Source: a virus
Lineage: Duplodnaviria; Heunggongvirae; Uroviricota; Caudoviricetes
Direction: 5' to 3' (one strand)
DNA: 24,435 nt
IMG/VR virus record: IMGVR_UViG_2529293044_000006
Location: 1 to 24,435 of that record
Shown: in pieces, positions 12,601 through 15,600 of the stretch
Layout: each line of letters starts with the position of its first letter
How positions within the stretch are numbered: the stretch's first letter is position 1
Made by a program: the position numbers

Positions 12601-15600
12601 CTATAACGGGCAGAAGGCGTTTGTTGACTCGATTTGCGACTTCAAAAACAAAACAAACTCCCACGTCATTCTCGTTACTCACTCGCGAAAAGGAGACAGC
12701 GAAGAAAAACCAACCGGGAAAATGGACGTAAAAGGCTCTGGAGCGATAACAGACCTGACAGACAACCTTTTCATCATCTGGCGTAACAAGGCTCGCGAGA
12801 GAGCGTTACAGAGAGTTCAGAGTGGTGAAAAGATGTCAGAGAAGGACGAACAGCTACTGGCATCTCCGGCATCTGTTTTGATGCTTGAAAAACAACGTAA
12901 CGGCGAAGGTTGGGAAGGTGGTGTCCCGTTGTTCCTTGACGAGCAATCGCACCAGTTCCTGCAACTTGAATCGGGATCGCCATATAGCTACATCGCCAAT
13001 ATGCCGAAATCGGAATATGACGAGTCGTGGCGACAGGAAAACGTGACGGAGTATTAAATGACCATCTACATCACTGAGCTAATAACAGGCCTGCTGGTAA
13101 TCGCAGGCCTTTTTATTTGGGGGAGAGGGAAGTCATGAAAAAACTAACCTTTGAAATTCGATCTCCAGCACATCAGCAGAACGCTATTCACGCAGTACAG
13201 CAAATCCTTCCAGACCCAACCAAACCAATCGTAGTAACCATTCAGGAACGCAACCGCAGCTTAGACCAGAATCGAAAGCTTTGGGCTTGCCTTGGTGACG
13301 TTTCGCGTCAGATTGAATGGCATGGTCGCTGGCTGGATGCAGAAAGCTGGAAGTGTGTGTTTACCGCAGCATTAAAGCAGCAGGACGTTGTTCCTAACCT
13401 TGCCGGGAATGGCTTTGTGGTAATAGGCCAGTCAACCAGCAGGATGCGTGTAAGCGAATTTGCGGAGCTATTAGAGCTTATACAGGCATTCGGTACAGAG
13501 CGTGGCGTTAAGTGGTCAGACGAAGCGCGACTAGCTCTCGAATGGAAAGCGCGATGGGGAGACAGGGCGGCATGAGACGACAGCGACGAAGTATCACCGA
13601 CATCATCTGCGAAAACTGCAAATACCTTCCAACGAAGCGCTCCAGAAATAAACGCAAGCCAATCCCAAAAGAATCTGACGTAAAAACCTTCAACTACACG
13701 GCTCATCTGTGGGATATCCGGTGGCTTAGAGAACGTGCGAGGAAAACAAGGTGATTGACCAAAATCGAAGTTACGAACAAGGAAGTGTCGAGCGAGCTTT
13801 AACGTGCGCTAACTGCGGTCAGAAGCTGCATGTGCTGGAAGTTCACGTGTGTGAGCGTTGTATATATGAATGCTTAAATATGGTGGAACATAATGAGAAA
13901 TATAAGCAACATAGACGAATTAAGAAATAAATTATCATATGATGATGTTTTAGGTGTACTTAGATGGAAAGTGTCTCCTTCTAATAATGCTAAGGTTGGC
14001 AGTGTTGCTGGTTACATTAGGAGTGATGGTTATAGGATGTTAACTATCGATGGTGTAATTACTTATGCTCACCACGTTATATGGATGATAAATAATGGTG
14101 AGATTCCATTAGGGTATAAAATTGATCATATAAATGGAGTAAGGTCAGATAATAGGCTATCTAATCTTCGATTGGTTACACACCAACAGAATGCACAGAA
14201 CCAAAAGAGAAAAATAACCAATTCGTCAGGAGTGACTGGAGTGTATTTCAATAAAGAGAGATGCAAGTGGATTGCGAATATATGCGTAGATGGGCGCACC
14301 AAATATCTTGGAATATTTGCTAGCATCATTGACGCTATTGCAGAAAGGAAGAGGGCAGAAAAAGAACTGGGTTTTCATGAAAACCATGGCAGACCATAAC
14401 TGCGCAGAACTGATGAGCGATCCGAATAGCTCAATGTACGAGGAAGAAGACGATGGTGATTAGCCGATACGGAAAAATAACGTTTAAACATTTTCAAGAC
14501 AATCCAACATGGGCGGCTGCGGCTGGATATGACTTTAATTATTTTGATTGTCTGTCAGTCGCATGTATTGCAACTACCAATGTTGCTAACAACATAATCG
14601 ATGAATTCTTGGATTTTCCAGACTATCAGGTCAGAGAGTTGCCTGCATTTTTTGTGAAAGTATCTGTTGCTACAGCTCTGTTATTTATTTTGTTATTCGC
14701 ATATCCATTGCTTGCCGTATTTGTTTATGTGAGATGCAAGCACTCACAAAATGAATACAGCGGAGAGCATACCGATATTACCAGCCAAAATATGCGAGTG
14801 TGGTTGAGGAGATGCCAAGAGAAATGGGGGAGAAGTCATGGCTAACCTACGCAAAGAAGCGCGCGGAAGAGAATGCCAGGTACGTATTTACGGCATATGC
14901 AATGGAAATCCTGAAACTACAGTTCTGGCACATTACCGGATGGCTGGAATTTGCGGAACGGGAATGAAACCTGACGACCTGATCGGCGCATGGGCTTGTA
15001 GTGACTGCCACGCGGAGATCGACCGACGCACAAGGATTCTCGACAACAAAGACGCCAGACTTTACCACCTCGAAGGCGTGATCAGGACGCAGGCGATACT
15101 GCTGAAGGAGGGGAAGATTAAGTCATGAACGAATATCAGTTTGTGCTTCCATACCCGCCGTCGGTGAACACCTACTGGCGAAGACGGGGAAGCCAATACT
15201 ACATCAGCGATAAAGGCCAGAAATACCGAAAAGACGTTCAGCAAATCATCCGCCAACTTTAGTTAGACATTTTCACCAAATCACGACTCCGCATCAAAGT
15301 CATCGCAGACGTTCCAGACTCCCGCCGCCGCGACCTCGACAACATCCTGAAAGGTTTACTCGACTCCCTTATCCACGCCGGATTTGCGGAAGACGACGAG
15401 CAATTCGATGACATTCGCGTAATTCGTGGTGTGAAAGTACCAGGCGGACGGCTTGGAATAAAAATCACCGAACTGGAGAACGCATGAACGCCACAATTCA
15501 AACGATACTAGAGCTTCTTATCCAGACACGAGGCAATCAGACCGAAGTGGCGAGGATGCTTTCCTGCGCAAGAGGAACAGTGCTCAAGTACAACCGAGAC

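Follow-up and report, generated by a model that had tools for sequence, protein, structure and literature searches.

The rusA gene of this stretch of lambdoid prophage DNA (the window, that is, all 24,435 nucleotides analysed) is interrupted by an in-frame TAG at codon 46. The question raised by this locus is whether the TAG is a genuine lesion that destroyed a Holliday junction resolvase, an error of sequencing, or a stop that is read through or kept by selection. We favor the first answer and put its probability at roughly 90%: a genuine nonsense pseudogene, inherited from a PP2-like prophage ancestor, with loss of the resolvase and apparently neutral. The original prediction, made from the sequence alone, had read the locus in the same sense, and its interpretation is supported except for the ancestral codon that it gave as an example.

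Translation of the plus strand from 15125 to 15487 yielded a product that starts with MNEYQ, runs through IIRQL into the stop, continues with LDIFTK and ends with ELENA before the terminal stop codon. With X at position 46, this product matched the Pfam RusA profile (PF05866) with 61.2 bits at a profile cutoff of 22.8 bits (E=2e-16), residues 9-114 corresponding to profile positions 1-123 of 124, and it aligned with K-12 RusA (PDB 1Q8R_A) without any gap over residues 1-119 (E=2.8e-26). A match from end to end and a gap-free alignment imply that the RusA-like sequence which had been noted on both sides of the TAG in one frame is real and not due to chance. The gene has the length of intact alleles, 363 nt, and aligns to them without gaps. 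The lesion is therefore a substitution and not an indel, and the earlier claim of a single-base nonsense change as opposed to a homopolymer indel holds. The closest intact alleles, from phage HK620, E. coli PK12 and phage vB_EcoP-683R2, are 98.9-99.2% identical to the window gene over the same 363 nt and carry AAG (Lys) at codon 46, as does the PP4 paralogue of the enteropathogenic E. coli (EPEC) O127:H6 strain E2348/69. Hence a single A to T transversion at 15260 gave rise to the stop, and not the change from CAG that had been offered as an example. Position 46 is variable: the allele type of the window has Lys, K-12 RusA has Met, and Gln is present in the E2348/69 paralogue in PP6.

In RusA, D70, D72, K76 and D90 are critical for endonuclease activity, D70/D72/D91 form the cation-binding site and residues 66-69 are an Arg-rich DNA-binding region (PMC1636454). 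The window encodes the Arg-rich stretch as well as D70, D72, K76 and D90/D91 in the rusA frame at the expected positions, all of them 3' of the stop (Table 1), and the 45-residue product has none of these elements. The predicted inactivation of the resolvase is thus borne out by translation, by the 1Q8R alignment and by the published residue roles (PMC1636454), as the stop removes all catalytic residues. We also considered reinitiation giving an active C-terminal fragment and rejected it: no ATG, GTG or TTG is present in frame between codons 46 and 103, a GTG at codon 103 being the earliest canonical start in this frame beyond the TAG, and a fragment with the active site therefore cannot arise by ordinary reinitiation. 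Given the TAG at codon 46, an open reading frame of only 45 codons and the distance to the next canonical start, we class the locus as a pseudogene of the RusA family and not as a functional member.

Table 1. Features of the rusA locus and of other parts of the window discussed in the text (positions in the window)
Feature	Position	Strand	Basis
IS21-family istA	2793-3815		
Truncated istB, 174 aa, profile positions 2-162 of 238	3812-4336		
IS3-family transposase orfB	4695-5561		
ybcO (DUF1364 putative nuclease), upstream of rusA; its TGA overlaps the rusA ATG (ATGA)	14838-15128	+	Pfam YbcO, E=1.2e-43
rusA pseudogene, 120 codons, RusA-family Holliday junction resolvase with internal amber codon	15125-15487	+	Translation, Pfam RusA, identity with E2348C_RS03655
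45-aa N-terminal fragment, the only open reading frame remaining in the rusA frame	15125-15262	+	ORF listing; same product called in DEC-series drafts
TAG, codon 46; ancestral AAG (Lys), A to T at 15260	15260-15262	+	Alignment to intact alleles
Untranslated remainder encoding the active site	15320-15397	+	Codon positions, 1Q8R alignment, roles from PMC1636454
R67-R69	15323-15331	+	
D70	15332-15334	+	
D72	15338-15340	+	
K76	15350-15352	+	
D90/D91	15392-15397	+	
ninH, downstream of rusA; its ATG overlaps the rusA TGA (ATGA)	15484-15672	+	Pfam Phage_NinH, E=1.1e-22
72-bp remnant of the original lambda-type Q antiterminator gene, boundary of the replacement event	15669-15740	+	RefSeq annotation of collinear PP2 (L001 16545-16616, offset 876)
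lpxR (lipid A deacylase) cargo gene, between Q remnant and second Q	15884-16843	-	ORF, PP2 RefSeq annotation, Pfam LpxR on DEC contigs
Second Q gene, intact, of another type	~17318-18007		PP2 RefSeq annotation

The TAG had been judged genuine, and the same base is indeed present in four assemblies of E2348/69 or derivatives that were deposited separately, in three drafts of the DEC series and in four contigs of IMG/VR. Of 5,426 complete E. coli genomes, only four matched a 63-nt probe with the TAG at its centre exactly, and each of these is E2348/69 or a derivative: NC_011601.1 and CP059840.2 (E2348/69), LT827011.1 (E2348/69 "variety 2") and LT903847.1 (EPEC1, an engineered derivative). About 650 other complete E. 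coli genomes matched the probe with at least one mismatch, and the TAG allele is absent from them; a probe with the TAG on the alternative CTC haplotype had no exact match among the complete E. coli genomes. RefSeq annotates a RusA-family pseudogene CDS with "internal stop" in all four complete carriers, so that the pseudogene status of rusA is already known from public annotation. Wild-type E2348/69 and EPEC1 were sequenced with Illumina technology at >100X and assembled both de novo and with reference guidance, and the prophage was identified as PP2, carrying nleH1, cif* and espJ (PMC5685641).

A TAG-bearing 38-mer was found in the four IMG/VR contigs, three with the backbone of the window and one with that of PP2, and scans of genome contig and metagenome contig collections gave no match to it. 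A 45-aa product ending at the true TAG is encoded on the draft contigs AIFB01000010.1, AIEV01000040.1 and AIEZ01000005.1. One of the three sources is E. coli DEC1A by its NCBI name, and the AIEZ and AIFB accession ranges suggest DEC2-series strains (PMC3897749). The rusA sequence is identical in all carriers and has no second lesion in any of them, which suggests that the pseudogene is young. We take the DEC1 and DEC2 strains to be O55:H6 members of the EPEC1 lineage and E2348/69 to belong to the same lineage; this common membership would argue for a single origin of the mutation in an ancestral PP2-like prophage and for its inheritance since then.

The intact 120-aa protein with Lys46 is encoded on at least 1,000 contigs and the 45-aa product on seven, some of which merely hold genes cut by contig ends. 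For that reason most of the additional matches to the 45-aa product (L020-L026) were rejected as TAG alleles. These seven unrelated draft or metagenome assemblies each have a contig end only a few bases away from rusA codon 45/46, probably because the assembly graph breaks where multi-copy nin regions cease to be identical (a CTT/CTC polymorphism). Through breaks at this point, artefactual 45-aa "partial RusA" proteins enter the databases and can be mistaken for the true amber allele.

The rusA pseudogene of PP2 (E2348C_RS03655, NC_011601.1 737061-737423) is 100% identical to that of the window over 363 nt including the TAG, and PP2 shares the rusA neighbours ybcO, ninH, Q remnant, lpxR and second Q. 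Unlike PP2, the window has SNPs in ybcO (14895) and ninH (15509) and a different, IS-bearing left arm. The possibility that the window is simply a slice of NC_011601.1 was rejected: a 2.5-kb query was 99.9% and not 100% identical, and direct comparison revealed a distinct mosaic relative. Collinearity with PP2 is confined to window positions ~9785-24154, the right part is ~99.4% identical, and the differences along the collinear stretch are SNPs at scattered sites, an indel of 21 bp and a few homopolymers of unequal length. The best match of the left arm (1-9785) is another E2348/69 prophage region near 2.62 Mb, with 67% coverage, and the nearest relative of the window is the draft contig AIEZ01000005.1 (99.95% over 11.8 kb). 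Since the window represents a mosaic relative of PP2 and not E2348/69 itself, the mutation would predate the divergence of these prophages. Differences from PP2 are dense at 9789-9959 and point to a recombination boundary beside the repressor/cro region. The 21-bp insertion relative to PP2 (10563-10583, GGTGGGGCAGGAGCTGCCCGG) is a multiple of three in length and lies inside an HTH-domain replication-region gene.

The rusA gene of the window is located in the lambdoid nin-region context ybcO/hkbD - rus - ninH - Q, with Q reduced to the 72-bp remnant. A GGAG is present five bases 5' of the ninH ATG, so that translation of ninH can start without coupling to rusA. From 15669 to 18007 the order is Q remnant, lpxR, ylcG and second Q, the cargo gene having replaced the original Q region. 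Upstream, an HNH endonuclease ORF of 168 aa (13893-14399; HNH_3 on a DEC contig) is situated between two ninF-like ORFs (13751-13930 and ~14308-14463) an arrangement suggestive of the insertion of a homing endonuclease by which ninF was split or duplicated; at the corresponding site of PP2, the RefSeq annotation has no more than a partial HNH pseudogene. Further pseudogenes are annotated in PP2 by RefSeq. The early-left region of the window, part of its left arm, contains IS insertions (2793-5561), and istB is apparently interrupted by the IS3-family orfB. The IS insertions, the PP2 pseudogenes and the Q remnant with the inserted lpxR and second Q are other signs of decay and mosaicism in the prophage around rusA. 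At the holin start (21622-21830) the window has a run of five A where PP2 has six, resulting in a frameshift after codon 3; a 35-aa ORF starts at the ATG at 21622, and the remainder is readable from a GTG at 21642. Either an error in sequencing the homopolymer or a genuine defect in lysis could account for this. Differences of one base in run length from PP2 are also present at 17118 (G run) and 18072 (T run), both between annotated genes.

Among known systems, Rus of phage HK620 (AAK28880.1) shares with the window gene 98.9% nucleotide identity, a length of 120 aa and the nin-region place between hkbD/ybcO and ninH, and HK97 and HK022 (gp67) carry the same allele type. Unlike the window copy, the genes of these three phages are intact, with AAG as codon 46 and a complete Q gene behind them. 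K-12 RusA from DLP12 (PDB 1Q8R, 2H8C, 2H8E) belongs to the same fold family and has R66-R69, D70, D72, K76 and D90/D91 at the same positions, but its sequence is diverged, it has Met at position 46 and its ORF is intact. K-12 rusA is nevertheless poorly expressed unless an upstream IS insertion activates it, so that the K-12 gene is silent for want of expression and the window copy because of a stop codon. E2348/69 itself has two intact RusA paralogues. The one in PP4 (WP_001008186.1; 98% protein identity) shows the ybcO-rusA arrangement of the window without interruption, and the one in PP6 (WP_000904174.1; 62%), a prophage located at 1.43-1.48 Mb, is likewise uninterrupted in a lambdoid nin region, where its neighbours are DUF968 and Q, and its residue 46 is Gln.

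The window and PP2 contain no tRNA genes. The check for a supE-type suppressor that had been proposed was run on E2348/69, a related reference strain and not the host of the window, and it comprised two loci, glnV/X and tyrT/V, outside of which lie serU, leuX, trpT and the lysine tRNA genes. The glnV/X locus of E2348/69 has a single tRNA-Gln(CUG) gene with the wild-type anticodon CTG and two tRNA-Gln(UUG) genes, and the tRNA-Tyr next to purU, in the tyrT/V position, has the anticodon GTA. PP6 carries tRNAs with the anticodons CAT, TTT and TCT. A suppressor with the anticodon CUA was thus not found in the window, PP2, PP6 or the glnV/X and tyrT/V loci of E2348/69. K-12 has two tRNA-Gln(CUG) and two tRNA-Tyr genes at glnV/glnX and tyrT/tyrV, whereas E2348/69 has one of each (L008:28156-28749 and L027:16370-16454), so that a mutation to supE or supF would cost the strain the single copy that it has at the respective locus. 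In PP6, ARAGORN predicted a tRNA-Lys(ttt) between tRNA-Ile (CAT) and tRNA-Arg downstream of Q (L012:2807-2882), which is absent from the RefSeq annotation.

The simplest competing explanation, a miscalled T in a codon that is truly AAG, has a next to negligible probability. The differences in homopolymer length between the window and PP2 at 17118, 18072 and 21626 indicate that the assembly is perhaps not error-free, but the TAG is a substitution in a non-repetitive context, and the presence of the identical base in the separately deposited E2348/69 and derivative assemblies, the DEC-series drafts and the IMG/VR contigs effectively refutes an error. We regard it as extremely unlikely that rusA is still functional by amber readthrough, be it through a suppressor tRNA of host or prophage or through near-cognate decoding with insertion of Gln or Lys. 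The coding sequence 3' of the TAG is still intact and position 46 tolerates Lys, Met and Gln, so that a product with Gln inserted by a supE-type tRNA would probably be active and a suppressor, if present, would probably restore RusA activity. Against this stand the tRNA anticodons listed above and the occurrence of the TAG in one identical allele only: no diverged homologue shares the stop, in contrast to what is seen at programmed readthrough sites. In E. coli, termination at a UAG with U as the next base is efficient, and the basal rate of readthrough at UAG lies well below 1%.

The inactivation of this RusA gene could also have been adaptive, for example by limiting resolvase-driven recombination among the several near-identical lambdoid prophages or by helping to lock a prophage with the cargo genes nleH1, cif*, espJ and lpxR into the chromosome. 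The allele has stayed the same on two prophage backbones that diverged or recombined elsewhere, which is compatible with positive selection for loss as well as with neutral hitch-hiking, and the presence of type III effector genes on PP2 would fit selection too. Yet the intact genes of PP4 and PP6 keep the cellular RusA capacity of E2348/69, the known carriers (E2348/69 and the DEC series) appear to form one group of related strains in which hitch-hiking explains persistence, and none of the ~650 further complete genomes of this rusA type has the allele, with no sign of recurrent independent loss at the site. We consider adaptive loss very unlikely. A more specific version, in which the amber allele is kept by selection in the EPEC strain group because RusA that is silenced or made at trace levels by readthrough stabilises the virulence-cargo prophage against resolvase-driven recombination with its near-identical sister prophages, is highly improbable in our estimate; if the selection reading were true, this would be a case of adaptive domestication by nonsense mutation. 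Nothing that we found points to recoding, to suppression or to selection.

A neutral nonsense pseudogene would be accounted for by the following sequence of events. An A to T transversion turned codon 46 of rusA from AAG (Lys) into TAG, probably in an ancestor of the PP2-like lambdoid prophage of E2348/69 and DEC1A-type strains. With translation ending after 45 residues, the product has neither the DNA-binding stretch nor the Mg2+-binding and catalytic residues and should not resolve Holliday junctions. The allele would then have been passed on unchanged while SNPs, indels, IS insertions and the exchange of the left arm altered the prophage around it. It may have persisted at no cost, RusA being a dispensable accessory gene of the nin region with intact paralogues elsewhere in E2348/69 and with RuvABC provided by the host. 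RuvABC is redundant with RusA in resolvase function.

The finding raises no new mechanistic question. Intact paralogues, as established for E2348/69, make this RusA copy redundant as a resolvase. The TAG in rusA is of use as a quality marker, being a biological lesion unlike the homopolymer frameshifts elsewhere in the window, and as a small lineage marker that connects the PP2-like prophages found in E2348/69 with those in strains of the DEC series. It is also one more sign that a prophage carrying effector genes and lpxR is decaying in place, in the manner of ordinary prophage decay.
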